Of a stretch of DNA of 64,000 nt, positions 1 to 43,279 are shown piece after piece; position 1 is the first letter of the stretch; every line of letters starts with the position of its first letter. The stretch covers positions 168,456,001-168,520,000 of the forward strand of contig NC_086097.1 in NCBI RefSeq assembly GCF_963921235.1. Direction: 5' to 3'. The translations under genes and the position numbers were made by a program. The DNA is from Mobula hypostoma (lineage: Eukaryota). Under the pieces are notes generated by a model. The model was not told the DNA's origin. It saw nothing but the letters and a program-made list of their open reading frames with translations, and ran no database searches.

Positions 1-1370
1 ATTCATGGCGAACGAGTTCCAGTTTCTGCCACCCTCATTTCTTTGGTTTCCTAACTTGAAGGATGAGCTGTAATTTTTAGACTCCTGCCCCTTTGGCTTT
101 TTTGCCTACCTTGACTCCCGCATGTAAGATGACAGAAAGCTTGATTTCACAGAATCATACTGGACAGAAATGGGCTCTTTCAGCCCACCTCTTTCTTGCT
201 ATCTGTGATGCCTACATAGTACTTGCATACTTTATGAACTTCTTTGGTTCTTTAACTTCAACTTAAGGCAATAGATGGAGATTGATGACGTGCAGATATA
301 TTCTACTGTTTTTCCTTTTGGGAATCCAAGTATTTACTGAAGAGGATCTTTTATAAAGTTCTGTGACTATAGGAAAATAGATACTGTTTATATCCATTAT
401 TTTTTAAAGTTATCCATGGGATGATACTTGTGCAAGGGTTTTGCATGCCAAAATGTACTTTTCTATACATTTTGTGAGTAACAACAGATGAATATTACAA
501 AACCAAATTGAAATTATTTATTGCTTTAGATGTTAGCTTTTAATTTTAGTCAGTGATTTGTTTTGATAATATTTCTGTTCTGCAGGTGCATGACAGAAAT
601 ATCATTTGTGTATTGGTATTTCATTGTGAAACTTGACCTGTATTTATTTTTAATTGTTGTAATTCAACCTTTGTTTTCCAGATTATATTATCTTTCCTCC
701 AGCCTGTGTATCCTCCAGACCATTCTAGGCATGTAATCTGAAACTGTTCTGCTGTTATGTACTGTAGCTAAGGAGTATTTTTTACTGAGAAAAACTTATT
801 TCATCATTTGGTAGAAAAGCCAAGCATTGAAGAATAATACAAGTATATCTGTGTTAATCTTTCTCTCAGATTCTATGTGTAATGGCCACAATTAGTTGAA
901 AGATGCCTTGCATTTTGACTCATTTGTGCACATCCATTGTGGATTCTTTATCCCGTGCAAAGTTGGTCTTTCAAGTTGAATATAAATTAGTGATTTGCTT
1001 CAAAAAAGTACAGATGTAATTTTATAAGTTGTTCTTTGATAAGTCTGTGCATAGATAACAAATAGGAATAGGACTATGACAGGCAGCAGAAACAGTACTA
1101 ATTCTGGAATCCAGAATTATACAGTATAAGGTTGCATAAAACAAGAGCATGAATAGGTCAGTCAATCAACCTTTGGAGTTCATTCAGTCAGATCATGGCT
1201 GATCCTGATCCAACCTAAGTCTCAACATTACTTTCCCATTTGCTCCCCATACCCTTTGATTCTTTTGTCAGTCACCATTTGATTCTAATGTTCTCCTGGA
1301 CAGAGAATACCTAAGATTCACGACCCTCAGAAGAACTTTTTCTTCATCCATCCTCAAACTTCTTATTCTG

Positions 1371-1563
1371 GCAACACACAAAATGCTGGAGGAACTCAGC
1401 AGGCCAGGCAGCATCTATGGAAAAAAATCCTGCTGAAGGGTCTAGGCCTGAAACGTCGCCTGTACTCTTTTCCATAGATGCTGCCTGGCCTGCTGAGTTC
1501 CTCCAGCATTTTGTCTGTGTTGCTTGGATTTCCAGCATCAGCAGATTCTCTCTTGTTTGTGAT
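1371..1563. mobile_element. Penelope-derived short element, fold-back arrangement
   Basis: 1371-1424 is the reverse complement of 1468-1523 (one mismatch). The sequence matches the terminal repeat of the Penelope copies elsewhere in the window. Confidence 0.75.
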
Positions 1564-2272
1564 TTGACTCCTTATTCTGAATGCCTAGATGATATCTATG
1601 GAGAAGTATCTCTTCACAATCTTAAATATTTAAGTAAGATCACCACTCGCTATTCTAAACTATAATTACAACACCATATCCATCAACTTTTATCAATCTT
1701 TTCAAACCAGTTTTTGTTCTGTATTTAAGGAATTATATACTTGCCTGCAGTAAAAATGTATTATTTCTTAAGTAGGGAGTCAAATCTATGTGCAGTAGTT
1801 CAGTTTCAGTCTCACACACTGCCCTGCAAAGCTGTATCAAATCTACTCCATGTTAATATTGTAAAAAATATTAGTCTTACTTATAGTTCCTATACCTGCA
1901 TGCTAACCTTTTGGTGCTTCATGCTTTAGAATTTTCTTGGATTCCTTTGAACTGCATCATTTACTTATTCTATCACACTCTAACTAATTATCCAATAATG
2001 GATAATCACATTTCCCCATAATAAATAGCAATTTTGAACCAGGCATCTATATTATTTCGCTCACTTCTCCTGGAGTAACAAGGCAATTGTCCTCTGTATG
2101 ATTTAGGATCTGTAATTCATGCTTATAAAATGAGAGAGGTTACGATATTCCCCTTTAGAGTTAACGGAACATATTCCACTAATTCTCTCAGCAGTGAAGA
2201 AGTTTGCATTCATTTATCAGCACCTTTTAGTCTTAATTTCTGCTTAATTCCTTTATCTATGTTCTCTTTCAG

Positions 2273-2386
2273 GGCTGCAAAGCTATAGAGTGGGTAATAA
2301 ACAAGACAAATGAGACTGAAGAATTATCAGCATCCGTCCAAGAGAATGTAAAGTCACCAACAGCTGTAGCAGCTGCTGAAGATTGA
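2273..2386 (+). CDS. PRELID3A: PRELI domain-containing protein 3 (SLMO family), last coding exon; probably the 3A paralog
   Basis: Polypyrimidine tract and AG at 2271-2272, then GCKAIEWVINKTNETEELSASVQENVKSPTAVAAAED* (TGA 2384-2386, second TGA follows). This resembles the PRELID3 terminal exon (GxxAxEWVI...EELxAS...PxAAAA). Paralog assigned from tail-to-tail synteny with SPIRE1, as in human 18p11. Confidence 0.82.
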   Translation, partial: GCKAIEWVINKTNETEELSASVQENVKSPTAVAAAED

Positions 2387-3580
2387 TGACCCCTGGTTGT
2401 GCCACACCTCTGACTTCTATTCAGGAAATTCACTTAGTAATGTGTTCGGTGTTATTTTAAGATGTCGTACCTTTTTTATGGAAAGACATTATAAGCTGCA
2501 AAATTGACTTTGGATGTATCAAACATTCAGGTCATTAAAATAAACAGCCAGCAGCCAAGCCTGTGAACATGGGGTACCAAGTTTCAAATTATTTATAGTA
2601 AGTTTTGTTTTTATAGTGTCCTTTGTTTGACCAACATCTAGTCAATAACAGTTCACAAAGTGGCATCTTTTGGTAGGTGTGTATGTATTTTTCTTTAAAG
2701 TAAGTGGTCTTATCCTTGAAATGCAACCAGAGGCATGGACAAGCATATGCACCTAAAGGAGCGTGCTGTTTGGCACCTATTGCGTTGCACTGGATTAATA
2801 CTTGACTGTGTAGTGGTTAATGTTGATGCCTTACAGCACTGAGTTAACAAAATGTTTATGTTTCAGAATGATGGTACAACGTCCTAAGTAAAATTTATTT
2901 TTATCATGAAGTTGAAATTTGGTTGTCTATCATTAGTGGCAGATCTCTGGAGGCTGGCCAGCTAGAATGCATAGGCATTCAACCAATGTTTTGGTCCTAA
3001 ACTATAAAGAAATATGTATTTGAAGTCAGCCTAAGTATGTGGGCTGAACAAAAGTACACTGACCAGTAACTCAATCACTTCAGCACAGCACTGTTACCAT
3101 AAAGATGTAACGCAATTTTGTGAAAGGCACGCATATCATAGTTCCAGAAATATTTCTATCAACGCAAAACTATTTACAATGTTTGCGCAAAAGGATTCCC
3201 ATACCAGTCAGCTTTAGATAACTTCTAGCTTGACATTTGGACTATTTTTGCATAATTCTTTCTCAAATAATTTCATTTTGTTCCAATACAATTATTTTAA
3301 AAACATTTAACAGAGGTTAGATTGTTTTCTGAATATTTATGTATTTAAATCCTGACTTGTGCTTAAAATACAGGATATTTTCTCTGAAATACCTTGTTTT
3401 TTTTCCAACATTATCATGTATTTAAAAAAAACTCTGAAAATTCTTTAGAATAGCAAGTTGAGGCATACTGTATTTTGGAGAAGTAAACTGAAATTGATTG
3501 TACTGTATCCATGCAATCTGCAGCTGACAATCCTTGTTTAACTTTTAGCATTAAATCCACATGTATTCTGCTCTCCCGAG
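2387..3580 (+). other. PRELID3A: Probable PRELID3A 3' UTR
   Basis: Repeat-free AT-rich sequence after the stop, with AATAAA at 2539-2544 and ATTAAA at 3550-3555. The actual end is uncertain. Confidence 0.5.
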
Positions 3581-3785
3581 CATGTGGATCAGTGGAGAAC
3601 AACTCATTTACTTGTGATTTTGATAGCAGTGTTTCTGTTTCCTATTTATGTGACTAGAAAATGTTGGAAACAGTCTGCTAACAAGGGTGGGGTTCAGGCC
3701 CAATCTAACCCACAGCTTCAACTGCCTGTTGCAGTATACCTGTCTCTCTATGGGGTAGCAAGGTTCTTTCTACCATGGGATGAGT

Positions 3786-5995
3786 CTCAGAGTCACAGAA
3801 CACTAAAGCACAAACAAGCCCTTTAGCCCATCTAGCCTGTGCCCAACAATTAAACTGCCTCGAGTCAATTATCTGCACCCAGACCGTAGCCCTCCATACC
3901 CATCCCATTCTTGTACCTATCCAAATTTCTCTTAATTGTTGAAATTGGACCCCCATCCACCACTTGCATTGGCAGCTCATTCCGCACTCTGAGTGAAGAA
4001 GCCCCCCCTTTTGACCCTGTTCACCTTTCACCCTTAACTTATGACCTCTAGTTGTAGTCTCACCCAATCTCAGTGGGCAAAGTTGCTTGCATTTACCTTG
4101 TTTATCACCCCTCATAATTTTGTATACCTCTATCAAATCTCCCGTCCATCTTCTATATTCCCAGGAATAAAGTCTTAACCTACTCAATCTTTCCCTGGAA
4201 CTTAGGTCCTCAAATTCTGACAACATCCTTGTAAATAAGATTGAAAGAGAGCAAAGAAAATTTACACCTTTCCTGTAGGCAGTTGACGAAAGCTGCACAC
4301 AGTACTTCAAATTAGGCCTCAATAATGTTGTATACAATTTCAACATAATATCCCAACTCTACTCAGTACATTGGCCTTCATTAAACCATGTGCCAAAAGC
4401 TTACTTTTCAACCCATGGCTAAGGATGCCACTTCCAAGGAATCTTGGATCTGTATTGCCAGATCCCTCTGTTCTACTGCACTCGTCAGTGCCTTACCACT
4501 GACCATGTAAGACTTATACTGGTTGTCGTCCCAAAGTGCAATGCCTCACATTTGTCTGCATTTAATTTCATCTGCCATTTTTCCAGCTGATCCAGACCCT
4601 GCTGCGAGCTTTAATAGTCTTCCTCACAGTCCACTATACCCAAAATCTTGGTGTCATCTGCAAATTTTTCTGATGCAGTTTACCACGTTATCATCCAGTT
4701 GCTATAGATGACAAGCAACAATGGACCCAGTACTAGCCCCTGCAGAATGCCACTAGTCACAGACCTCCAAACAGAGAGGCAACCATTTACAACCATTCTC
4801 CTGCAAAGCCAGAGACTAATCCAATTTATTACCTCATCTTGACCAACCTCCCATACAGGACCTTGTCAAAGGCATTGCTAAGGTCCATGTAGACAACATC
4901 CACTGCCTTGCCTTCATCAACTTTCCTGGTAGCTACCTTAAAAAACTGTATAAGATTGACTAGACCTGACTTACCACGTACAAAGCCATGCTGACTAGCC
5001 CTAATCAGTCCCTGTCAACCCAAATACTTATAGATCCAGTCCCTTAGAATACTTTCCAATAGCTTTCCCACCTATATTGTCAAGCTGACTGGCCTATAAT
5101 TTCCTGGCTTATTCTTAGGGCTTTTCTGGAAAAAAAAGAGAACAAATTTATCTATCCTCCAATCCTCTGGCACCCTACCCATGGCTAAGGATGTTTTAAA
5201 TATCTCTGCTAGGACCCTGGCATTTTCTGCACTTGCCTCCTGCAGGGTCTGAGGGAACACCTTGTCAGGTCATGGGGATTTATCCACCTAATACGTCTCT
5301 TTCAGCTCCATGTATAGATTACCATTCTGATCTTCTAGAGAACCAATTTTGTCCCCTGCTATCCTTCTGCTCTTAATATATTTGTAGAAGCCCTTAGGAT
5401 TCTCCTTCACTTTGCTAGAGCAGTCTCATATCTTCTTTTAGCCCTTCTGATTTCCTCCTTAAATGTTCTCTTGCATTTCTTATACCTACTCCTTTAGAAT
5501 CTCATTTGTTTCCGCCTACCTATACCTGCTGTGCATCTCCTTTTTCTTAACCAGGGCCTTAACACCTCTCAAAAACGAAGGTTCCCTTATCCTTGCCTTT
5601 TATTCTGGCAGGAACATAGAGACTGTACTCTCAAGAATTCACTTTTGATGGCTTCCCACTTACTAGGTACAGCTTTGGTAGAGAACAGCCTGTCCCAATC
5701 CACATTTGCCAGATCGTTTCTAATACCTTCAAAATTGGCCTTTCTCCAATTTAGAATCTTAACTCCAGGACTAGACCTATTCTTTTCTATAATTACCTTG
5801 AAAGTAACGGCATTATGCTCACTAGATGCAAAGTGTGCCCCTTCATAAACTTTTATTACCTGCCCTGTCTCTGTCCCTCACAGGAGATGTGGTTTCACCC
5901 TCTCTCTAGTTGGAATTTATATGTACTGTTTAAGGAAACTTTCCTGAATGCATTTGACAAACTCCCTCCCTTAAATCCGGTTTACAGTATGCTGA
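3786..5995 (-). mobile_element. CR1 LINE, degenerate ORF2
   Basis: Fragments LRPNLKYCVQ, GDLIEVYKIM and PGNYRPVSLT, with stops and frameshifts. Confidence 0.9.
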
Positions 5996-7155
5996 TGAAA
6001 AGTAATGTGTCTTGTTTCTCTTAAAGTGGTACCTTGTTGGATTTTAATTACGTAGCCTAGTAATTTGGATTTCCCAATATAAGGAATCCATTACATAGTC
6101 ATTATCTTGCAATTGGAGGGAGAAGGCAGAAATTCGAACGGACTGGGATGTCTGAGATTATAAAAATCCTGCCTTAATGAAATCCATGCCTCTTTCCTCT
6201 GGAAATCCGGCAGACATCATGGAAAGCTAGCCAATTTTTGGATTGATCCAGAAGTTTTTTTTTTCTCCAAGAATATATTTACATAGAAAACTTAAACTGT
6301 TTGGATGTTATAATAGCAAATAAGTATCAAATGGACGAATAGGATTAATAAGTTATCTGAAAAGAGATGAACTGCTTAGAATATGCTGTACAGCACTAGG
6401 TATCTTTACTAATTCATGATTTTTTTTTTAGAGGATTCAGGCGTTGCCTTCTCACTCTAATCTTGAATGCATTGTGGAAAAGAGTATAGTCAACGTTTCG
6501 GGCCCAGAACCTTCATTGGGACTCAATACGTACTCTTTTCCATAGGTACTTAGTGGCCTGCTGAGTTCCTCCAGCTTTGTGTGTGTGTTGTTTGGATTTC
6601 CAGCATTTGCAGAATTTCTCTTGTTTGTGACACCAGTGTAGGAAAGCTTTGCTGTAGTTATAAATAATGTTGTAAACCACAACTGAAGTACTGAATGTAG
6701 ATTTGGATGCTTTGTTTATGGGAAGATGTACTTGCCACAAACAAATATAAGAGTGGGTATGTTGGACCTATAGTCTTTTGAAGTTTAGAAGAATAAGAAA
6801 GTCGGTGAAATATAAGAACCTGGGCAGATGCTGATCAGAGTAGATGTTGAGAGGCTATTTCCTTCAGGGGGAAGAATTGAGAAGTCGGGGTGAATAGTCT
6901 TAAGCAAAGTCTCCATTTAAGATGAGCTTAGAAGGAATTTCTTTTTCTAAAGAGAGTTGAATCTTTGGAATCTTCTGGCTCTCAGATTCATAGATATTGA
7001 GTTCTTCATTACATTAATGGATGAGACATGATTAGACTTTAGGAGAATGGAGGGTTACAGAAAACAGACAGGAATGTAGAGCCAAAGACAAGATCAGAGT
7101 AACTATGGTCTCTCTGAATGGCAAACAATCCCAATGGGCAGTAAAGCCTACTATT

Positions 7156-9545
7156 TAGAACATAGAAAACTCACAGCACAATACAGGCCCTTCGCCCCAC
7201 AAAGCTGTGCCGAACATGTCCTCACCTTAGAAATTACCTAGGGTTACCCATAGCCTTCTATTTTTCTAAGCTCCATGTACCTATCCAGGAGCCTCTTAAA
7301 ATACCCTATCATATCCGCCTCCACCACTGTCGCCGGCAGCCCCTTCCATGCACTCACCACTCTCTGCATAAAAAAAACTTACCCTGACATCTCCTCTGTA
7401 CCTACTTCCAAGCACCTTAAAACTGTGCCCTCTCATGTTAGTCATTCAGCCCTGGGAAAAAGCCTCTGACTATCCACATAATCAATGCCTCTCATCATCT
7501 TATATACCTCTATCAGGTCACTTCTCATCCTCTGTCACTCCAAGGAAAATAGGCTGAGTTCACTCAACCTATTCTCATTCTCATAAGGCACACTCCCCAA
7601 TCCAGGCAACATCCTTGTAAACCTCCTCTGCACCCTTTTCTATGGTTTCCACATCCTTTCTGTAGTGAGGCGACCAGAACTGAGCACAGTACTCCAAGTG
7701 AGGTCTGACCAGGGTCCTATATAGCTGCAACATTAGCTCTCGGCTCCTAAATCCATTTCCACGATTGATGAAGGCCAATACACCGTATGTCTTCTGAACC
7801 ACAGAGCCAACCTGCTCAGCTCCTTTGAGTGTCCTACGGACTCGGACCCCAAGATCCCTTGATCCTCCACACTGCCAAGAGTCTTACCATTAATACTATA
7901 TTCTGCCATCATATTTGACCTACCAAAATGAACCACTTCACACTTATCTGGGTTGAACTCCATCTGCCACTTCTCAGCCCAGTTTTGCATCCTATCAATG
8001 TCCCCTTGTAACCTCTGACGGCCTTACACACTATCCACAACACTTCCAACTTTTGTGTCATCAGCAAATTTACTAACCCCTCCCTCCACTTCCTCATCCA
8101 GGTTATTCATAAAAATCAGGAAGAGCAGCATTCCCAGAAGACATCCCTGAGGCACACCACTGGTCAACGACCCCCCCCCCCCCATGCAGAATATGACCCA
8201 CCTACAACCACTCTTTGCCTTCTGTGGATGAACAAAGCAACGTTCCCTTGGATTTCATGCCTCCTTACTTTCTCAATAAGCCTTGCATGGGGTACCTTAT
8301 CAAATGCCTTGCTGAAATCCATATACACTACATCTACTGCTCTATCTTCATCCATGTGTTTAGTCACATTCTCAAAAAATTCAATCAGGCTGGTAAGGTA
8401 CGACCTGCCTTTGACAAAGCCATGCTGACTATTCCTAATCATATTATGCTTCTCCAAATGTTCATAAATCCTGCCTCTCAGGATCTTCTCCATTAACTTA
8501 CCAACCACTGAAGTAAAACTCATTTGTCTATAATTTCATGGGCTATCTCTACTCCCTTTCTTGAATAAAGAAATAATATCTGCAATCCTCCAGTCCTCTG
8601 GAACCTCTCCCGTCCCTATTGTTGATGCAAAGATCATTGCCAGAGGCTCAGCAATCTCTTCTCTCACCTCCCACAGTAGCCTGGGGTACACCTCATCCAG
8701 TCCCAGTGACTTATCCAACTTGATGCTTTACAAAAGCTCCAGCACATCCTCTTCCCTAATATCTACATGCTGCAGCTTTTCAGTCTGCTGTAAGTCATCC
8801 CTACAATTGCCAAGATCCTTTTCCGTAGTGAATACTGAAGCAAAGTACTCATTAAGTACCTCTGCTATCTCCTCTGGTTCCATACACACTTTTCCACTGT
8901 CAAACTTGATTAGTTCTGTTCTCTCACGTCTTATCCTCTTGCTCTTCACGTACATGTAAAATGCCTTGGGGTTTTCCTTAATCCTGTCCACCAAGGCCTT
9001 CTCATGGCCCTCTCTGGCTCTCTTAATTTCATTCTTAAGCTCCTTCCTGCTAGTCTTATCATCTTCTAGATATCTATCATTACCTAGTTTTTTGGACCTT
9101 TCGTAAGCTCATCTTTTCTTCTTGACTAGATTTACAACAGCCTTTGTACACCACAGTTCCTGTCCCCTACCATCCTTTCCCTGTCTCATTGGAACGTACC
9201 TATGCAGAACTCCATGCAAGTATCCCCTGAACATTTGCCACATTTCTTCCATACGTTTCCCTGAGAACATCTGTTTCCAATTTATGCTTCCAAGTTCCTG
9301 CCTGATAGCATCATATTTCCCTTACTCCAATTAAACACTTTCCTAACTTGTCTGTTCCTATCCTTCACCAAAGCTATGGTAAAGGAGATAGAATTGTGAT
9401 CACCATCTCCAAAATGCTCTCCCACTGAGAGATCTGACACTTGGCCAGGTTCATTTCCCAATACCAGATCAAGTACAGCCTCTCCTCTTGTAGGCGTATC
9501 CACATATTGTGTCAAGAAACCTTCCTGAACACACCTAACAAACTC
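7156..9545 (-). mobile_element. CR1 LINE, 5'-truncated
   Basis: RT motifs SQHGFVKGRSYLTSLIEFF, YMDFSKAFDKVPH and VRPHLEYCAQFWSP; endonuclease C-terminal LDLVL...GDHN; 3' tail near 7156. Confidence 0.93.
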
Positions 9546-10155
9546 TTTCCTACATTCTTACCTTTAGTGACATGATAGCAAACTTGATTATTTAAATGCA
9601 AATCTGTGGTCATTAGAAGAATAATGTTAGAATGAGTGTCTCTGTGCTACATTTGCTCAGGGATCTCCGGGAATCGAAGATAAAGCATGATATTGCTAAC
9701 AGCAACCAAGGTGAAAGTCCTTTTTCTTTGAATGTTTACATACAAGAAAGGAAATGAACCCTGCAAGCACAAGGAATCACAAATGAGAAAATCTGCAGAT
9801 GCTGGAAATCCGAACAACACACACACAATGCTGGAGGAACCCAGCAGGCCAGGCAGCATCTATGGAAATGAATAAATAGTCGACATTTTGGGCCGAGGCC
9901 CTTCAACAGCACAATGCATAGTTGCCCATTTGTCTTTGAGTCTGAGCTACTACTCCGAAAGATCAGGACTAATCTTGGGACTGAAGACCATCTATTTACT
10001 TAAACCTCAATGACCTCAGCCTACCACTTTCTAACTCTGACTTTTTTTTTTCTCCAGTCCTGATGAAGGGCCTCGGCCCAAAACATGCACTATACTATTC
10101 TCCATAGGTGCTGCCTGGCCTGCTGAGTTTCTCCAGTATTTTGTGTGTGTTGCAA

Positions 10156-11140
10156 GTATTCCATAAGCCTTCTTAACCACCTTATCAACCTGTGTAGCTA
10201 CTTTCAAGGAGCTATGACCTTTGGACCCTATGATCTCTCTGCTCAACAACACTGTTAAGGATCATGTGCTTAACTGTGGACTGCTCCTTGCATTTACCCT
10301 ACCAGGGTGCAACACCTCACATTTATCTGGGGTAAGCTCCTTTTGACATTTCTCTACCTATATCTACAACTGATCTATATCAGGCTGTATTCTTTATCAG
10401 TCTCCTAAACTATTTGCAACTCCACCAATATTGGTTTCATTGGCAAACTTACTAATCCCTTCACCTACTATTCTCTGTTTTCTATGTGCAAGCCAGTTCT
10501 GAATCCAAACAGCTAATTCACCATGGACCCCATGAATCTTAATCTTCTGGTTTAACCTCCCATGAGAGGCATTGTCAAACACCGTACTAAAATCCACGTA
10601 GACAGCATCCACTGCTCCTACCCTCATCTATCACTCTTGTCAGAAACTGATTCAAGTTAGTAAGACACGACTTGCCCGGCACAAAGCCATGCTGGGCTCT
10701 CCCTAATTAAGCCATGGGTTTCCACATGCTCATATATCCCCCATCTCCTAGAATTCTCTCCAGCAATTTCTCTTCAACTGGTTTATAGTTCCCAGGATTT
10801 TCCTCTGTTCCCTTCTTAAATAGAGATTCAACATTAGCTATTTGCCAGTCCTCCAGGACCTCAATGGTGCCTAGATGGACAAGAAGGTACTGGGTCAAGG
10901 CACCAGTAATCTCATCTCTTGCCTCCCTCAATAACTTGAGGTAAATTCCAAAAAGCTCTGGGGACTTATTCACCTTAATACTCCCTAGGAGATCTAATAC
11001 TTTTTCTCCTTGACCTCTAAATGCCCTAACATATTTATGCACTCTGCACTGATCTTCTGGTCCTCCATGTCCTTTTCTTTGGTAAGTATTGAAGTAAAAT
11101 ACTCATTCAGGACCTCACTCACATTCTCCGCATCCAAACA
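10156..11140 (-). mobile_element. CR1 LINE fragment (resumes at about 11918-11990 after a Penelope insertion)
   Basis: DAVYVDFSTVFD, NPGNYKPV and WIQNWLAHRKQR. Confidence 0.85.
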
Positions 11141-11917
11141 AGTGCTACACTTGCCCTTACACTTCCTCCCTTACCACCATTCAGGGCCCCAGACAGTCCT
11201 TCCAGGTGAGGCGACACCTCACCTGTGATTCGGCTGGGGTGATATACTGCATCCAGTGCTCCCGATGTGGCCTTCTATATATTGGCGAGACCCGATGCAG
11301 ACTGGGAGATCGTTCTGCTGAGCACCTACGCTCTGTCTGCCAGAGAAGGCCAGAGATCTCCCAGTGGCCACACATTTTAATTCCACATCCCATTCCCATT
11401 CTTATATATCTATCCACGGCCTCCTCTACTGTAAAGATGAAGTCACACTCAGGTTGGAGGAACAACACCTTATATTCTGTCTGGGTAGCCTCCAACATGA
11501 ACATTGACTTCTCTAACTTCCGCTAATGCCCCACCTCCCCCTCGTACCCCATCCGTTATTTATTTATATACACACATTCTTTCTCTCTCTCTCCTTTTTC
11601 TCCCTCTGTCCCTCTGACTATACCCCTTGCCCATCCTCTGGGTTCCCCCCCTCCCCCTTTTCCTTCTCAGTGAGCCTCCTGTCCCACGATCCTCTCATAT
11701 CCCTTTTGCCAATCACCTGTCCAGCTTTTGGCTCCATCCCTCCCCCTCCCACTTTCAAATCTCTTACTAGCTCTTCCTTCAGTTAGTCCTGATGAAGGGT
11801 CTCGGCCCGAAACGTCGACTGTACCTCTTCCTAGAGATGCTGCCTGGCCTGCTGCATTCACCAGCAACTTTGATGTGTGTTGCTTGAATTTCCAGCATCT
11901 GCAGAATTCTTCGTGTT
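11141..11917 (+). mobile_element. Penelope-like element, 3' part (GIY-YIG endonuclease and pseudo-LTR)
   Basis: TCDSAGVIYCIQCSRCGLLYIGETRCRLGDRSAEHLRS, followed by the terminal repeat also seen at 14686-15085 and 16749-17215. Confidence 0.92.
11785..11820 (+). ncRNA. Minimal type I hammerhead ribozyme in a Penelope pseudo-LTR
   Basis: AGTC-CTGATGA-A-GGGT(CTCG)GCCC-GAAA-CG-TC-GACT. Core boxes intact, stem I AGTC/GACT, stem II hairpin, palindromic ACGT in place of stem III, GUC cleavage triplet. Confidence 0.75.
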
Positions 11918-14685: not shown

Positions 14686-17215
14686 GCAACACACATCAAA
14701 GTTGCTGATGAACGCAGCATTCCAGGCAGCATCTCTAGGAAGAGGTACAGTCGACGTTACAGGCTGAGACCCTTTGTCAGGACTAACTGAAGGAAGAGCT
14801 AGTAAGAGATTTGAAAGTGGGAGGGGGAGGGGAGATCCAAAATGACAGGAGAAGACAGGAGGGGGAGGGATGGAGCCAAGAGCTGGACAGGTGATTGGCA
14901 AAAGGGATATGAGAGGATCATGGGACAGGAGGTCCGGGAAGAAAGACAAGGAGGTGGGGGGGGGGGACCCAGAGGATGGGCAAGGGGTATAGTCAGAGGG
15001 ACAGAGGGAGAAAAAGGAGAGAGAGAGAAAGAATGTGTGTATATAAATAAATAACAGATGGGGTATGAGGGGGAGGTGGGGCATTAGCGGAAGTTAGAGA
15101 AGTCAATGTTCAAGCCATCAGGTTGGAGGCTACCCAGACAGAATATAAGGTGTTGTTCCTCCAACCTGAGTGTAGCTTCATCTTTACAGTAGAGGAGGCC
15201 GTGGATAGACATGTCAGAATGGGAATGGGACGTGGAATTAAAATGTGTGGCCACTGGGAGATCCTGCTTTCTCTGGCGGACAGAGCGTAGGTGTTCAGCA
15301 AAGCGGTCTCCCAATCTGCGTCAGGTCTCGCCAATATATAGAAGGCCACATCGGGAGCACCGGACACAGTATATCACCCCAGCCGACTCACAGGTGAAGT
15401 GTCGCCTCACCTGGAAGGACTGTCTGGGGCCCTGAATGGTGGTAAGGGAGGAAGTGTAAGGGCATGTGTAGCACTTGTTCCGCTTACACGGATAAGTGCC
15501 AGGAGGGAGATCAGTGGGGAGGGATGGGGGGGATGAATGGACAAGGGAGTCATGTTGGGAGCGATCCCTGCGGACAGCAGAAAGAGGGGGCGAGGGAAAG
15601 ATGTGCTTAGTGGTGGGATCCCGTTGGCGGTGACGGAATTTACGGAGAATAATATATTGGACCCGGAGGCTGGTGGGGTGGTAGGTGAGGACCAGGGGAA
15701 CCCTATTCCTAGTGGGGTGACGGGAAGGTGGAGTGAGAGCAGATGTGCATGAAATGGGGGAGATGCATTTGAGAGCAGAGTTGATGGTGGAGGAAGGGGA
15801 GCCCCTTTCTTTAAAAAAGGACATCTCCCTCGTCCTGGAATGAGAAGCCTCATCCTGAGAGCAGATGTGGTGGAGATGGAGGAATTGCGAGAAGGGGATG
15901 GCATTTTTGCAAGAGACAGGGTGAGAAGAGGAATAGTCCAGATAGCTGTGAGAGTCAGTAGGCTTATAGCAGACATCAGTAGATAAGCTGTCTCCAGAGA
16001 TAGAGACAGAACGATCTAGAAAGGGGAGGGAGGTGTCGGAAATGGACCAGGTAAAGTTGACGGCAGGGTGAAAGTTGGAGGCAAAGTTAATGAAGTCAAC
16101 GAGCTCAGCATGCGTGCAGGAAGCAGCGTCAATGCAGTCGTCGATGTAGCGAAGGAAAAGTGGGGGACAGATACCAGAATAGGCACGGAACATTGATTGT
16201 TCCACAAAGCCAACAAAAAGGCAGGCATAGCTGGGACCCATACAGGTGCCCATGGCTACACTTTTAGTTTGGAGGAAGTGGGAGGAACCAAAGGAGAAAT
16301 TATTAAGAGTAAGGACTAATTCCGCTAGATGGAGCAGAGTGGTGGTAGAGGGTAACTGATTAGGTCTGGAATCCAAAAAGAAGCGGAGAGCTTTGAGACC
16401 TTCCTGATGGGGGATGGAAGTATATAGGGACTGGACATCCATGGTAAAAATAAAGCGATGGGGGCCAGGGAACTTAAAATCATCGAAAAGTTTAAGGGCG
16501 TGCGAAGTGTCACCAACATAGGTAGGAAGGGATTGAACAAGGGGGGATAAAACCGTGTTGAGGTATGCAGAAACGAGTTCGGTGGGGCAGGAGCAAGCTG
16601 AGACAATAGGTCTGCCAGGACAGGCAGGTTTGTGGCTCTTGGGTAGGAGGTAGAAATGGGAAGTGCGTGGTGTGGGAACTATAAGGTTGGTAGCAGTGGA
16701 TGGGAGATCCCCTGAGCAGATAAATTGGGTGATGGTGTGGGAGACAATCGACTTCTCTAACTTCCGCTAATGCCCCACCTCCCCTCGTACCCCATCTGTT
16801 ATTTAGTTATATACACACATTCTTTCTCTCACTCTCCTTTTCTCCCTCTCCTTTTCTCCCTCTGTCCCTCTGACTATGCCCCTTGCCCATCCTCTGGGAT
16901 CCCCCCCCCCCCAGTTTCCTTCTCCCTGGGCCTCCTGTCCCATGATCCTCTCATATTCCTTTTGCCAATCACCTATCCAGCTCTTGGCTCCATCCCTCCC
17001 CCTCCTGTCTTCTCCTGTCATTTTGGATCTCCCCCTCCCCCTCCCACTTTCAAATCTCTTACTAGCTCTTCCTTCAGTTAGTCCTGACGAAGGGTCTCAG
17101 CCTGAAACGTGGACTGTACCTCTTCCTAGAGATGCTGCCTGGCCTGCTGTGTTCACCAGCAACTTTGATGTGTGTTGCTTGAATTTCCAGCATCTGCAGA
17201 ATTCCTCGTGTTTGC
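14686..17215 (-). mobile_element. Penelope-like retroelement (RT + GIY-YIG) with an inverted pseudo-LTR at 16749-17215
   Basis: 373-aa ORF 15321-16442 contains DVQSLYTSIP, AMGTCMGPSYACLF, RYIDD, PFLD and VIYCVRC...YIGET; frameshifted. Imperfect 16-bp target duplication at 14670-14685 and 17216-17231. Confidence 0.95.
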
Positions 17216-25218: not shown

Positions 25219-25315
25219 ATGAATCTGAGTGGGACGCCGAAGGCTTACAAAGCTGGACACCTAAAGCCTCAGATGTCCAGCACTGAAGTGTTATCAAGCA
25301 GGACAATAGAATTTG
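25219..25315 (+). CDS. CARD + tandem RHIM-like protein, coding exon 1
   Basis: First ATG (AAAATGA) after an in-frame TAA at 25171. Encodes MNLSGTPKAYKAGHLKPQMSSTEVLSSRTIEF, with donor G|GTAAG in phase 1, matching the next exon. Confidence 0.7.
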
Positions 25316-26644
25316 GTAAGAATTCACATTCTATTGTTACTTGTTAGATGTAGAGAGAGGGATCTTTGCTTCTGGCTTAAAGTTATTACACTAATTAATG
25401 CTCTCAACCAACTGGTAAGAAGATACTCCATAAAATAAAATAAGGAATCTCTGAAATAAAAACTTCCCCGGAGTATAGGAGGCTGAGGGGTGACGTTATC
25501 TAGGTGCTTAAATCCATGAGGAGCATGAATAGGGTTAGTGGTCACAATATTTTTCCCAGGGTAGGGGAGTTTAAAACTAGAGGGCACAATTGTCAATGTG
25601 AAAGGGAAAAAATTTAGAAGAGAACTGAAGGAAAGCTTCTTTAGATGGAGAGTGATGGTTATGTAGAATGAGCTGCCAGAGGAATTTGGAGAAGTGGGCA
25701 CAATTACAATGTTTAAAACAGAAACAAGAGGGAATCTGCAGATGCTGGAAATCTGAGCAACATACACAAAATGCTGGAGGAAGTCAGCAGGCCAGGCAGC
25801 ATCTGTGGAAAAAAAGTACAGTTGACGTTTCGGGCCCATCCTGCCAAAGGACACAGTAGACCAAGGGCTTCCATGCTGTATGTCTACGCCTCTGACTGGG
25901 ATATATACATGGGATTAAGTTAGTGCAGAAAGTAAAAGAAAGTTTTTTAAACAATAGAATTTTTCATATTATTCTGAAGGAGCAACACCTGCGCATACGA
26001 AGCACCCCACCCCCCAGGATGAGGAGATACTTCACCTACAGATCATTAAATTTTCATTTAACCTCTTTTATATGTGTTTAATTTTAAGTAGTTGTGAGAA
26101 CAATGTGTAAGAATTGATTTTTGTATAATCATTGAGCCAGCAAAGTTTTCAGCAGTGGAGGTCAGCTTTGACTGTATATTCCTATTTCTGCATCAGTGCA
26201 TGAATGGAGCTGCTAATGATTTCACAAAGTAACCCTGGAGTACTGATTAAAGAAATTAAGAATGGAATTTGGTTGAAAGAAGAGGCCTTTAAAATTACAA
26301 ATAGTGGTCAGCTATAGTCCAGTTTTGGTTGTCATGGGAGAAATGGGCCAAAGGTCCTCCATTAACGTTATGATTCATTTCATGGTGGCTTTCTAGACAT
26401 CCACAATTATTATTGCCTCACCAGTGACAGCTCTTCAGCTGTTGAGAACCATTTCTCTCCTTAGGTGCAAACTAACCTATTGAGTTCCTCCAGCACTTTA
26501 TATGTTGCTCCCTTCAGCTGCCGAGGCTCTAAGGTTCATACTATAAAACCCTCTTTGTCCTATCCTCTTAATTCTTCAGACTCTGCTTTGATCACTAATA
26601 TCTCATTATTTGGTTCAGTGTCCTTTTAGTTTTCCTCCTTACAG

Positions 26645-30455: not shown

Positions 30456-30713
30456 ATCTCCGCAAACATTACTACGCGATGAGCATGTCAATGCCCCCCG
30501 CGGTGGCGGAGCAGATTGCTTTCTCCCTGTACAGTGCTCGGATTCTCAGCCAATATGAACTTAACGTCATTATCTCTAAGACTGAGGTGCTCTCCAAGGC
30601 ATCTGAGCTGCTCTCTGTCGTCATCCGGAAAGGGTCGAAGGCCTGTGGCATCTTTCTCCAGGTTCTTAAAACATGTGACCCAAATCTCAGTGAACAACTA
30701 GTCAGAGAACAAG
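30456..30713 (+). CDS. CARD + tandem RHIM-like protein, exon 2 (CARD domain)
   Basis: CAG acceptor, 258 nt, G|GTAAAA donor, phase 1-1. (D)LRKHYYAMSMSMPPAVAEQIAFSLYSARILSQYELNVIISKTEVLSKASELLSVVIRKGSKACGIFLQVLKTCDPNLSEQLVREQ shows the CARD pattern LRKH...L....ILS..E...I......KA.ELL..V..KG..AC..FL..L...DP.L...L. Confidence 0.85.
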
Positions 30714-35023: not shown

Positions 35024-35080
35024 CAGTTAATTCTACTAATAAGATTCCAATGACTGAATTATTGAAGCCACCTTCTTATG
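35024..35080 (+). CDS. CARD + tandem RHIM-like protein, exon 3 (linker)
   Basis: CAGCAG acceptor, 57 nt, consensus G|GTAAGT donor, phase 1-1, open frame (A)VNSTNKIPMTELLKPPSY. Confidence 0.7.
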
Positions 35081-38413: not shown

Positions 38414-38563
38414 CAGTGCAGTCCCCGGTGATATGCAAGATATGCATCTGCAACTCAAGTCTGAACAACTGCACTTTTGGCTCAGGCAACAGTATGTCCA
38501 TCATAACAACCACACCATTATCCAACACCGAGGAGCCTGCCACAAGTATAAATAAAGAATGCG
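38414..38563 (+). CDS. CARD + tandem RHIM-like protein, exon 4 (RHIM-like motif 1)
   Basis: TTTTTTCTCCCCCAG(CAG) acceptor, 150 nt, G|GTATGT donor, phase 1-1. Encodes (A)VQSPVICKICICNSSLNNCTFGSGNSMSIITTTPLSNTEEPATSINKEC. Confidence 0.8.
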
Positions 38564-39963
38564 GTATGTTTTCTTTGTTATTTCTTCATTCTGCAATTGT
38601 AACAATGAACCTTCATTTCTGATCCATTGTTTAGATAGCTCTCTATAGTCAGAGCCATTTCATTCAGCCAATGGTCTAACCTGGTATATACTGTAAACAA
38701 TAAAGACAGGCCATAATGGGAGGCTGAAGTCTGCTGACTTTACATTTCTCCACAGTATATTCCATCTGCATTCAATCTGTATGTCAGTTTGTAATTTCTT
38801 TGTGTCTTCACAACTTCCTTTCCCTTAAGGACTTTATCCTGCAGATGCTCTACTAAAAATCCAGAATTCAGATTCCACTATCACAGCTCATAGAGTCATA
38901 CAGAGTGGAATCAGGGCCATTGAACCAATCTGTCCATGCTGGCCCAGGTGAGCTAGTCTCATTTGCCTGCATTTGACCCATCTGAAGCAGGGGCTCCCAA
39001 CCATCTTTATGCCATGGAGCCTTACTATTAACTTAGTGGTCCTTGGTTGGGAGGTTAGGAACCCCTGGAAAGCTTCCCTGTCCACGTACCTGTCTAGATG
39101 TCTTATAAATTTAGTTGGGGAGGTTGCATTATTGCATTAAGGCAACATTTCACTGCTGCCCTTCCTTCATCGCACTTGAGAAGGTGCTGAGAGGCTTTAT
39201 CTTATCTGCATCTATTTTAATTGTTCTGGGATAGTAGTGTTATTCTATGGGATTTAAATTCAGATTGACAATATTTAATTATTTTAAAAACCAGCGATTA
39301 AAAGTTTAAATCAAAGTAAATTTATAATCAGAGTATGTATGCCACATACAACCTTGAAATTCAGCTTCTTGAATAAAGATGACAGAACTATCGGATTGTT
39401 GTAAAAACCCACTGGTGTTCTACTATCTGCCATCCTGACCCAGCCTACATGTAATTTTAGGCCCACTAAGTGAAAGGTTGACACTTAACTAACCCCTGAA
39501 ATGGCTCAGTCAACCATTAAGTTCATGAGAAATTAGGGATAGGTATTAAATTCTACTTTTCCAGTGACTCTCAAAAAAATGAATGCATATCATCTCCCTT
39601 TGAGTGATTGACACAGATGGTGACCCAGTAACTGACACTTATTTTGTTCCACTGGTCACAGTTTGGCAACCTGAAATAAGCTCTTCATTCCTACTGTTTC
39701 TATTTGTTAGTCTATCCTCAATCCATTATTCTGTGCCATAGTCTCTACTTATCTAATTTACAGAAAGCCCAAATAAACCCCATTCTATGGTAGTCACAAT
39801 ATCAAACACCTACAGATTTGTAAAATATGATTTCCCTGTTTAACTTATGTTGGACTCTACATTAGGATTTTACAGGTGCTTTGTTGGCATTTTCCCAATA
39901 AGAGATTCTACCATATTATTCACTGTAAAATTACTACTTTGTGCAATTTTACATAAGCGGGCT

Positions 39964-40272
39964 GTGGGCACGTGGCCAAGTGGTTAAGGCATTCGACTAG
40001 CGATCTGAAGGTTGTGAGTTCGAGCTCCAGCCAAGGCAGCGTGTTGTGTCCTTGAGCAAGGCACTTAACCACACAGTGCTCTGCGGCGACACTGGTGCCA
40101 AGCTGTAGTGGCCCTTGCCCTTCCCTTGGACAACATCGGTGTCATGGAGAGAGGAGACTTGCATCATGGGCAACTGCTGGTCTTCCATATAACCTTGCCC
40201 AGGCCTGTGCCCTGGAGAGTGAAGACTTTCCGGGCGCAGATCCATGGTCTTGCAAGACTAACAGATGCCTTT
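39964..40272 (+). mobile_element. tRNA-derived SINE with CORE-like central domain
   Basis: A box TGGCCAAGTGG and B box GAGTTCGAGC, followed by GTGTCCTTGAGCAAGGCACTTAACC (CORE/MIR-like) and a LINE-like tail. Confidence 0.75.
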
Positions 40273-40453
40273 AAATATAACCGGGGAAACACGCAATGTA
40301 TAAAAACAAAGCCATGTACTGCCAGAGAAAATTAAATCTCTTTCCAATATTTTTTTTCCTTTAAGACTTGTGTTTATTTTTGGCACCTGATTTGGCTGGT
40401 GCATTTTCTTAGCTATGTATCTAATCATTGACCTCGATAAATTTTCTGATTAG

Positions 40454-40719
40454 GAAACGTCATCGGTGCAACATCTACATCTTGCTTGTCCAGCATTTCA
40501 AATGACACAGATGTATATAGTATGGAAACCTTCCAAGCTGACATCGAAATCGTCAGATCTAAATTAACAAATATTACTGTTGGAGAAAGCAATGTGTTCA
40601 CAGTTGTGGAAGAATTCAGCAATAAAGATGATAATGAGAAGGATCTGGAAGAAGAGTTAGAAGGAAATGACTACAACGAACAGTCAGCAAAGGTGTCGGT
40701 GGCCAAAGCATGTGTATAA
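40454..40719 (+). CDS. CARD + tandem RHIM-like protein, exon 5 (RHIM-like motif 2 and acidic tail)
   Basis: TAG acceptor at 40451-40453, phase 1. Encodes (G)NVIGATSTSCLSSISNDTDVYSMETFQADIEIVRSKLTNITVGESNVFTVVEEFSNKDDNEKDLEEELEGNDYNEQSAKVSVAKACV*. Possible internal donor AAG|GTGTCG after 40692. Confidence 0.78.
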
Positions 40720-41210
40720 TTTGAAATACAGCATGTAGATTACTATATAGTAAGTGACTTTATGTTGTTTGAGAATTATGGATTGTCATTAATTAGAAAA
40801 ACAGGAGGATCATAACCATAATTTTTCAACTCAAGGGGATTAGGTATTTCCGTGCTGAGGAAATACCATGGGAAATGTATAATAAGCTCAAAATGTGTGA
40901 GTTGGGTGAGCCACAGAGAGATGTTCACTGTCCAGAACCACCTCCAAGGATAAGCCATTGTTTGCACAGGAAGAGGATGAGTAACAATGGAACATGTGGA
41001 ATTGGGGTAACACAGCCGTACTGGTTGGAAGTTAATACATAGAAAGCAGAATTGGTTATTATGGAGCCTTGTCTGTTCAGAATGCTAGACCCACGTGAGT
41101 TTGAAACTATTAAAAATGCATCATTATTGTGGGAAATGCTAAAAAATGCGATTTTTCTCTGCAAATACAGAACTTTGTTCCAATTGCAGACTTTTTGTTT
41201 TGTTTTCCAG

Positions 41211-41258
41211 GATGAATTTCAGTGGGAGATTGAAATATTAAACGCAGAGACTCTGTGA
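41211..41258 (+). CDS. Possible alternative terminal exon 6 of the CARD/RHIM-like gene
   Basis: Strong acceptor CTTTTTGTTTTGTTTTCCAG. A phase-0 join from 40692 gives DEFQWEIEILNAETL*. Confidence 0.5.
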   Translation, partial: DEFQWEIEILNAETL

Positions 41259-41700
41259 ATGCCGTCTGGTAGTTATAACAGCAGAAAGCACCCAGCAGGC
41301 TCTGGAATTCAGTTGTTCAAGCTTCATGGTTAAATCTTATTATAAACCACTCTACCAAAAACTGATTTTCTGTAATTCCGTAAAATCCCAATTTCTCAGT
41401 GTTACTGATTTATTAGCTTCACAGGGAATATCAAAGTGGCACAACTGAGGTTCAAATCAGATAAATTGATCTCTTTTAATAGCACAATTCCCTAGCCCAG
41501 AGGACAGAAGTATATTCAACACTAAAGTTGATAGGACACTAAGGAGGAAGATAGGCTTGAGACAGGAGATCAACAATCATTCTTGAAAGAATGACTTGAA
41601 AAGCTGTTCCTACATTGATTTCATATTTTTAAGTATCATCTGCTTATTGTGTTAGTTTTGTATATCTAACCACTTCAAAACGGGGGTTGCCCTGTTCAGT

Positions 41701-41733
41701 ATTTATTTATTTATTTATCTATCTATCTATCTA
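41701..41733. repeat. Compound microsatellite (ATTT)n(ATCT)n
   Basis: atttatttatttatttatctatctatctatcta. Confidence 0.85.
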
Positions 41734-43279
41734 CACATCCACTTGCAGGATGTGACCATTGTGATAAGATAGTACATGTCCATCACTAATTGCTTCTTGA
41801 TCAAGCTCCCATAGTGGACTGAAGGGAGTTAAAGATTGTCCAGGAGGCCAAGTATGGAGCAGTAAAAAATGCTCTGTGCATTCTGGATGGGAAGAAGTTG
41901 TTAAGGTAGATAAGGGCAAAGACATTTCTCACCCCATAGCATGCCTCTACAGCTGTATTGACACCTTTAGGAACAGCCGACAACACTCCAAGCTCCCACT
42001 GAAGCTCCTGGCTTCCCAGTATCTCACCACATATTGCAGCTTCTTTGCATCATCTCATTTTTCAGCTTTCATTCACCCACCCATTAATCATTCTTCTGTT
42101 CACTGCCAGCCACGTGGCCAATTTAAGATAAGGTTATGACTCACCAAAATGGGGCATCATCGCACTGGAGACAGAAGAGACCACAAAATTATGGAATCAG
42201 AGGAACGCAGCACGACAGGCAGGAAATGGACAGCTGACGTTTCAGATTGAGATGTTCATTGTACGTAGCTGTTCATTTAGGGTTCCCAGCTTGGGAAAGC
42301 CCAGATCAAAAGCTGATCGACTGCTAAAACGGGATATAGGTGCGGCCCTGATTGACCACATTCACTCTTCACTGGCACCACTGCATTCTCAGCCTTGAAG
42401 AAAAGCATTTGTACATAAATTCAGTGTGAGGTGGGAGTACTGAGGACAGGGGTGGTGGGGGTTGGGGGGGGGGAAGAGGTGCAGTTTATAATCTGTTATA
42501 CCAGCAAGTGCTATCACTTGATTGTCATATATAGTAAATATATGTACAAAGCACCACCAACCTGCAAAATAAAAGTGTTTGATATCCTGATCTGTCAGTA
42601 AGTATTTATTTAACATACTAAACCCAAGCACATACTGTACAGGAGATATCAATATTAATACAGATATAGATTAGTCTTCTTTGATACCTTTCAACTAAGG
42701 TAGTATGTTGGTTCAGAACATCTTTTGTTTCTACACTGACCCCTCAAATATGACCCTGAAGGCCAGGTAGGTACTGTACAATTTTCTGACACTGCTGTTC
42801 GGACGGGATAGGTAGGTGTCCCTCTAGAAGAAAATTAACTATAGAGCTGCTGGAGTTTGGTGTTAACTAGTTAAATTCCATCAGAGGCCCTGTAGCTAAG
42901 TTACTATGTCAATCAAATAGAAACCCACCTGTTAAATTGGCAGGACAAAGGTTTGGGGTGGGGAGGCGGGGGGGGGGGGGTCAATTGTGTGAACAACAAA
43001 CCGGGCAAAGAGACGTTCCAAAAGCCCATGGTTATTTCAGTAATTTGGTAACAAAGCTGGTGACTTCTCTTTGGTTTTATAGTCAACGGCCAAATAGCCA
43101 ATTATCAAGTATGAGGGTTAGGCTGGAGATTAGGCACTAGAGTTACACCTTCAAACAGAGTTTTCTTTCCAAACCTTTAGAAATACTCCCACAAGATGTG
43201 AAGTATAACTGACATAAACTTTGCAACACACATGAAATGATGGAGAAACACAACAAGCAGCATCTATGGAGGGGAATAA

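Follow-up and report, generated by a model that had tools for sequence, protein, structure and literature searches.

The window (the whole stretch of 64,000 nucleotides of Mobula hypostoma DNA analysed here) contains a five-exon gene that is, by source names, the ray ortholog of the fish gene si:dkey-29h14.10. Its CARD exon was 100% identical to the database si:dkey-29h14.10 isoform X4 of Mobula hypostoma (P0003). The ray protein has 273-275 residues, arranged as a CARD, a linker, repeat 1, a linker of ~50 residues, repeat 2, and an acidic tail, with the two repeats starting 71 residues apart. The features of the locus are the following:

25219..25315, forward strand: coding part of exon 1 (ATG at 25219, 32 residues, phase-1 donor, GT at 25316)
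30456..30713, forward strand: exon 2, CARD (Pfam PF00619, E 3.1e-11)
35027..35080, forward strand: exon 3, linker (GT..AG joints to exon 4 in 4/4 runs)
38414..38563, forward strand: exon 4, a 150-base phase 1-1 cassette with repeat 1 (contig joints)
38440..38502, forward strand: repeat 1, long-form RHIM-like, core CTFG (motif counts, profiles, AlphaFold2 model)
40454..40719, forward strand: coding part of exon 5 to the stop, with repeat 2 and the acidic tail (contig joints)
40543..40605, forward strand: repeat 2, long-form RHIM-like, core ITVG (motif counts, profiles, AlphaFold2 model)
40606..40690, forward strand: acidic tail 3' of repeat 2 (Asp/Glu fraction)
40720..41999, forward strand: 3' UTR, extending to at least 41999 (contig pieces)

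All five exons were placed by contigs, the last one running from 40454 on with its stop at 40719. Contigs join exon 1 to exon 2, and the N-terminus of the database protein P0003 matches it. The earlier note had singled out the two repeats, and its translations proved exact, with 8/21 residues identical and no gap. The repeats lie in separate ORFs, each within a short exon bounded by AG/GT, with a 1,890-base GT-AG intron (38564-40453) between them; contigs span GT..AG at this joint of exons 4 and 5 in 4/4 runs from two studies (runs presumed to be RNA). Splicing and conservation rule out that the two segments are one ORF or a chance resemblance. All introns between coding exons are phase 1. A loose scan for RHIM-like cores in the six frames of the window gave eight matches, both repeats among them.

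Some transcript variation was observed. Isoforms without exon 4 were found as database proteins from three shark species (P0011, P0022, P0023), and skipping of exon 4 was not seen among the ray contigs examined. Tandem acceptors at 35024/35027 and 38414/38417 make exons 3 and 4 one residue longer or shorter (P0003 vs. P0004). In the 3' UTR, an intron at 40751-41210, 32 bases past the stop, was spliced in some contigs (X1) and retained in others. Within intron 4, ~39960-40270 is a high-copy repeat, judged by depth, with a tRNA-like start, probably a SINE.

The reading of the protein in the earlier note was only partly right. It overlooked the CARD at the N-terminus, the domain that sets the likely function. 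The domain has both the six-helix CARD fold and the Pfam match, and fold searches with the full model gave matches to CARD only. By sequence and fold, the nearest CARDs among solved structures were NLRC4 first, followed by cIAP1, ICEBERG, and caspase-1: the family CARD profile matched NLRC4 with E 6e-14, and the CARD model aligned to the NLRC4 CARD with Z 15.7 and rmsd 1.2 over 87 residues. The NLRC4 CARD nucleates caspase-1 and ASC filaments. The identity to it is ~25%, and a CARD likeness this low does not name a partner. The ray protein differs from NLRC4 in having neither NACHT nor LRR, and its oligomerisation would come from the amyloid-type module instead. A sawshark protein (P0061) apparently consists of two CARD-like repeats and nothing else.

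Regarding the repeats, their similarity in the ray protein P0004 alone was modest, with 5/300 shuffles reaching the best self-pair score. Across 13 cartilaginous orthologs, from 1 to 171 of 300 shuffles reached that score, and the best self-pair was the one between repeats 1 and 2 in 12/13. The profiles of the two motifs aligned over 21 columns with a probability of 95%; their score of 28.1 compares with maxima of 14.1 for 60 column shuffles and 12.7 for 60 parity-keeping shuffles. In the same 13 orthologs, the majority fraction was 0.89 at repeat 1 vs. 0.55-0.62 in the linkers.

We counted motifs in 33 sequences (13 cartilaginous and 20 bony); near-duplicates, fragments, and isoforms without one of the repeats were excluded. 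The pattern I-x-I-x-x-S-x-L-x-x-hydrophobic-x-hydrophobic-G-x-x-N was kept in all 33 sharks, rays, and bony fishes; thus, the G-x-x-N and the alternating hydrophobic positions that the earlier note relied on are conserved in orthologs. The Gly was invariant (66/66 motifs), Ser stood at -8 in 62/66, and position +3 was Asn or Ser in 64/66 (Asn 52, Ser 12). Positions -13, -11, -6, -3, and -1 were hydrophobic or Cys, the first three hydrophobic nearly throughout. The +5 hydrophobic position of repeat 1 was Gln in 10/20 bony fish, and the third strand is less conserved in teleosts. The first core residue was Cys in repeat 1 (32/33) and mostly Val in repeat 2 (21/33). The repeats were spaced 51-76 residues apart (median 69), and the 20 residues past the motif-2 segment had a mean Asp/Glu fraction of 0.54.

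At the position of the RHIM Gln, the repeats carry Thr, Ile, or Val, and Gln in 0/66; the single hagfish copy does carry Gln there. Core Thr was found in 8/13 cartilaginous sequences for repeat 1 and 10/13 for repeat 2 (18/26 altogether), and in 1/40 bony fish motifs, where Ile prevails (18/20 for each of repeats 1 and 2). Since Thr is mostly confined to sharks and rays and bony fishes have Ile, the proposal that Thr encodes a different partner specificity is unlikely; the loss of Gln is the constant.

A word-based search retrieved 22 proteins, all from sharks and rays, and an exhaustive profile search retrieved 62, of which 30 were looked up by name. CARD with both repeats was present in sturgeons, paddlefish, gar, bowfin, bichir, coelacanth, lungfish, and ten teleosts, and the lamprey and hagfish proteins carry CARD with one repeat. 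No two-repeat member from tetrapods appeared among the named members (30/62 matches looked up), and in the accessible part of a human gene list, PRELID3A and SPIRE1 have no gene between them (PMC11272337). Spiny-rayed fish were likewise not seen among the named members looked up, and may have lost the gene. The lamprey CARD scored 72 bits with the CARD profile of the family, CARDs from outside the family at most 61.5, and the hagfish CARD 56. In a CARD tree, a branch (88/82) separated the 20 jawed-fish rows from the rest, and lamprey and hagfish were not recovered in it as their sister.

We modelled the protein with AlphaFold2. From 37 sequences, the prediction gave three strands per repeat (143-148/151-157/161-169 and 214-219/222-228/233-240) at an offset of 71 residues, with pLDDT 74-87 in the repeat block vs. 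38-47 in the linker, which is disordered; rung contact was read from the strand register in DSSP strings. From 13 sequences, the repeat region was of low confidence, with bridges 71 residues apart. The in-register, two-rung arrangement suggested by the earlier note is thus reproduced, as a prediction. Stacked rungs also predict residue pairs that we observed in cartilaginous sequences: Asn over Asn at -4 and +3 in 13/13, and Lys over Asp/Glu at -14 in 11/13. We consider it probable that the repeats fold as a two-rung beta-solenoid.

The fungal HET-s likewise has two non-identical repeats in one chain, a two-coil solenoid (predicted for the ray protein), and an effector domain in front. Asn ladders and some in-register charge pairs are common to both. 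However, the effector is HeLo in HET-s and CARD in the ray protein, and the ray linker of ~50 residues is longer than the one between the HET-s repeats. HET-s chains gave no sequence match in the PDB searches, and searches with single repeat exons returned nothing relevant. These searches are insensitive, as the RHIM of the ray TRIF-like gene, used as a control, matched RIPK3 fibril chains with E-values no better than 0.05-0.07. In the ESM Atlas, the repeat region and the newt ZBP1 C-terminus gave no usable feature match, and all structure matches had TM of at most 0.35. Two-coil solenoids were already proposed for multi-RHIM proteins by Kajava et al. (PMC4262963).

The canonical RHIM core is the tetrad (V/I)-Q-(V/I/L/C)-G according to the available text of PMC9444067, from which the ray cores CTFG and ITVG depart. 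The repeats share with canonical RHIMs (RIPK1, RIPK3, TRIF, and ZBP1 RHIM-A) the I-x-I strand, the hydrophobic-x-hydrophobic-G core with its invariant Gly, and the x-x-N-x-hydrophobic tail. They differ from them in two extra residues before the core, the missing Gln, the tandem arrangement in one chain, and the negative Pfam result. The Drosophila cRHIM core is given as VxxG in the accessible part of PMC13506858; of the fish repeats, repeat 2 begins its core with Val in 21/33 and repeat 1 with Cys in 32/33.

Pfam RHIM PF12721 matched 0/13 cartilaginous and 0/20 bony orthologs, and a genome scan with it gave 11 matches, the gene locus not among them. It did find the RHIM of ray RIPK1 and that of a TRIF-like exon, both canonical; we take the latter gene to be TRIF from its long single-exon frame. 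PF12721 also misses newt ZBP1 isoform X3 (P0082), and therefore it does not cover long RHIMs. A further RHIM match above the Pfam cut-off (22 bits, E 0.76) lies in a 31-codon frame at C22:41.385 Mb.

In profile comparisons, both repeats pooled aligned with the four canonical RHIMs over 20 columns (score 26.0, 95%) and with the long motifs of ZBP1 over 23 ungapped columns (27.7, 95%; also 27.7 with bony fish only); shuffles gave at most 14.8, and 0/60 reached either score. Repeat 1 alone vs. the canonical RHIMs scored 16.4 (49%), with 1/60 parity shuffles higher. The ZBP1 long-motif profile comprised six motifs from two newt ZBP1 proteins; the database search for ZBP1 gave four proteins, all newt, and mammalian ZBP1 was considered through its published cores only. 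In a search of 1.84 billion representatives, newt ZBP1 isoform X3 was returned with E 7.9e-4 through the repeat region alone. An unrelated beta-rich repeat protein (P0079) came up in the same search with E 6.6e-4 through a look-alike stretch, so the newt E-value alone is no proof of kinship. With a bony-fish HMM, two newt ZBP1 long motifs outscored every one of 11,444 decoys (15.1 and 10.8 bits vs. a top decoy of 10.5); the remaining four had 6.0-8.8 bits (1-9 decoys higher) or were absent from the listing, and the hagfish motif stayed below 8 bits with the fish profile. In line with the earlier note, these comparisons indicate that the repeats are probably RHIM-related, and their long form can be described as a RHIM into which two residues are inserted ahead of the core.

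The likeness to the later RHIMs of ZBP1, which the earlier note had pointed to, holds as well. Newt ZBP1 isoforms (P0109, P0110) have four RHIM-like motifs, one canonical and three of the same longer spacing, and X3 lacks the canonical one. The fish repeats follow the long register I-x-I-x-x-S-x-hydrophobic-x-x-core-G-x-x-N and match the three newt long motifs over 21-23 ungapped columns, as RHIM-B/C-type motifs. Cores lacking Gln are found in ZBP1 too, in newt (SMIG, TVIG, ANFG) and in human: the accessible portion of bioRxiv 10.1101/2025.06.06.658343 gives human cores at 206 (IQIG), 264 (VQLG), and 332 (ATIG), the last one being the Thr-containing core, of RHIM-C, that the earlier note had mentioned. 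The RHIM-B and RHIM-C cores are 68 residues apart by these positions, close to the fish median. Newt ZBP1 also has an acidic tail past its last motif (0.45, two proteins), as in the fish family. On the other hand, ZBP1 has Z-alpha domains where the fish protein has a CARD and no Z-alpha, and a four-sequence canonical profile listed no P0004 segment above 3 bits as a candidate RHIM-A. The two genes also differ in host and position: the fish gene belongs to fishes, from which ZBP1 is reported absent (all fish in a survey of 489 vertebrates, according to the available part of PMC12119088), and to a different, paralogous chromosome block.

In the ray, the order on C1, which carries the window, is beta-tubulin, PRELID3A, the CARD-repeat gene, and SPIRE1. 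This matches the human order TUBB6-AFG3L2-PRELID3A-SPIRE1 as given in the accessible part of PMC11272337. On C2, SPO11, PCK, and PRELID3B lie within ~0.5 Mb; the assignments to PRELID3A and PRELID3B rest on one exon each, with margins of 4-7 bits. The block that holds the gene is thus a sister of the PRELID3B-PCK1 block and paralogous to it; the human regions 18p11 and 20q13 are whole-genome-duplication paralogons. In amniotes, ZBP1 is located within SPO11-RAE1-RBM38-CTCFL-PCK1-ZBP1-PMEPA1, as described in the available portion of PMC5871936. Direct orthology to ZBP1 by position was rejected, since the ray gene stands between PRELID3A and SPIRE1 and not beside PCK1.

We also searched the neighbourhood of the ray PCK. 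In 400 kb of C2 (14,696 segments), no second copy or long motif rose above background (best long-motif score 10.4 bits, vs. 8.2 and 10.7 in two other regions), and no Z-alpha was found in these 400 kb. With newt ZBP1 as genome query, one weak Z-alpha match was the only result. A Z-alpha exon lies at C22:101.64 Mb, separate from a two-Z-alpha frame on C2 and perhaps PKZ, and no long RHIM-like motif was found within 120 kb of this C22 exon. At C2:225.71-225.74 Mb, PCK is present as two copies that point in opposite directions. A weak CARD-like segment at C2:225.91 Mb (E 0.036 among 14,696 segments), flanked by stops and probably a chance match, follows PRELID3B at a distance of ~42 kb downstream and shares its strand, a position that mirrors the gene beside PRELID3A.

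Regarding its origin, the gene could be the surviving fish sister of the signalling half of ZBP1, a possibility that we regard as rather doubtful. An ancient vertebrate CARD-RHIM adaptor, with one repeat as in lamprey and two in jawed fishes, would have been copied when the PRELID3A/PRELID3B blocks duplicated. One copy would then have retained its CARD, while the second acquired Z-alpha domains and became tetrapod ZBP1. Duplication with the block means that the second copy must have persisted unseen in fish lineages. Later exon shuffling, which the phase 1-1 exons would permit, is equally possible. If the sister relationship were true, the gene would link RHIM amyloids to CARD filaments directly, as a molecular bridge, and ZBP1 RHIM-B/C would form a separate, older, Gln-independent solenoid class.

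At the functional level, the ray protein has the anatomy of an adaptor, with one death-fold domain, one predicted amyloid module, and no enzyme. Our tentative preference is for an amyloid-forming adaptor that clusters an NLRC4-like CARD and nucleates caspase-1/ASC-type filaments, although as a whole activating mechanism we would not yet bet on it. The repeats of one chain would fold into a two-rung unit, and the units of separate molecules would stack into an amyloid-like fibre. The trigger that nucleates this assembly may be a RHIM amyloid or, alternatively, a CARD filament acting upstream. The fibre would then array the CARDs and so nucleate a CARD filament, with caspase-1/ASC as the putative partner. 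The isoform skipping exon 4 would be a one-rung form that could tune nucleation.

The protein could instead act as a decoy or brake, either as a Gln-less solenoid that caps or poisons RIPK1/RIPK3/TRIF amyloids or through a CARD that caps caspase-1 filaments; the earlier note had raised a decoy function, and we find it unlikely. It would fit the absence of a catalytic domain and of a canonical motif of the RHIM-A type, and ICEBERG is among the nearest CARDs, CARD-only proteins being able to cap caspase-1 filaments. Possible targets exist in the ray genome, where RIPK1 and the TRIF-like exon have canonical RHIMs, and Drosophila Pirk is a precedent for a RHIM-repeat inhibitor (PMC4262963). The role of ZBP1 RHIM-B/C is disputed in the accessible parts of the sources: in mouse they are reported as autoinhibitory (PMC10347765), whereas in human they are required and promote assembly and death (PMC13554060; bioRxiv 10.1101/2025.06.06.658343). 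Moreover, one rung would be enough for capping, yet two were kept from sharks to lungfish.

A signal running in the reverse direction, with an upstream CARD filament gathering the protein and the repeats seeding RIPK1/RIPK3 amyloid as in the necroptosis route of ZBP1, seems to us quite unlikely. The reported absence of ZBP1 from fish (PMC12119088, part of the text) and the ZBP1-like order of N-terminal clustering module, RHIMs, and acidic tail speak for it. However, the motif of ZBP1 that recruits RIPK is, in the available literature text, the canonical RHIM-A, which is missing from the ray protein; the two extra residues alter the arch, and some single-residue changes of the tetrad abolish RIPK3 NF-kB activity (PMC12119088, in its accessible part). 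It is also improbable that the repeats, though derived from a RHIM, form no amyloid and serve as a small self-contained solenoid or as a dimerisation module: the AlphaFold2 model does fold both repeats within one chain and the acidic tail could repel stacking, but both faces of a two-rung solenoid stay open, and the one-repeat isoforms and lamprey protein would need folding partners. Convergence, a generic beta-arch repeat resembling RHIMs and unrelated to ZBP1, is improbable too, despite the short motif, the negative Pfam result, the mimicry by P0079, and the weak match of repeat 1 alone to canonical RHIMs, because length, register, spacing, and acidic tail all agree with the ZBP1 C-terminal motifs, a death-fold domain is part of the same protein, and the chromosome block of the gene is a paralog of the ZBP1 block.

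The combination of a CARD with tandem long RHIM-like repeats is real, conserved, and apparently undescribed. No description of si:dkey-29h14.10 or of a CARD-RHIM protein was found in the full-text literature within reach, i.e., outside subscription journals and bioRxiv supplements. Database records of si:dkey-29h14.10 list CARD as the only domain, without the repeats, and label some isoforms as caspase-1 though they have no caspase domain. As far as their accessible parts go, reviews give four RHIM proteins for mammals and mention no CARD-RHIM protein (PMC13506858, PMC9444067), and the latter lists four human proteins as RHIM carriers. Unnamed fish proteins were among the profile matches of Kajava et al. 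(PMC4262963), and this family may already be among them.

The CARD-repeat adaptor that we favour suggests a fifth vertebrate RHIM-class architecture, which could couple amyloid signalling to inflammasome CARDs. As just a CARD and two long motifs, the fish protein isolates a RHIM-B/C-type module for study, and the gene offers a testable origin for ZBP1. By its name, a zebrafish ortholog exists, which makes genetic testing possible.

Finally, two observations concern the rest of the window. Positions 1-11169, together with the sequence upstream (C1 ~168.38-168.47 Mb), belong to a 39.8-kb tandem duplication of 99.6% identity that includes a PRELID3A exon and is either a recent event or an assembly artefact. 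On the reverse strand, a frame of 481 codons at 15324-16766 weakly matches reverse transcriptase (E 3.5e-4) and is a retroelement fragment.
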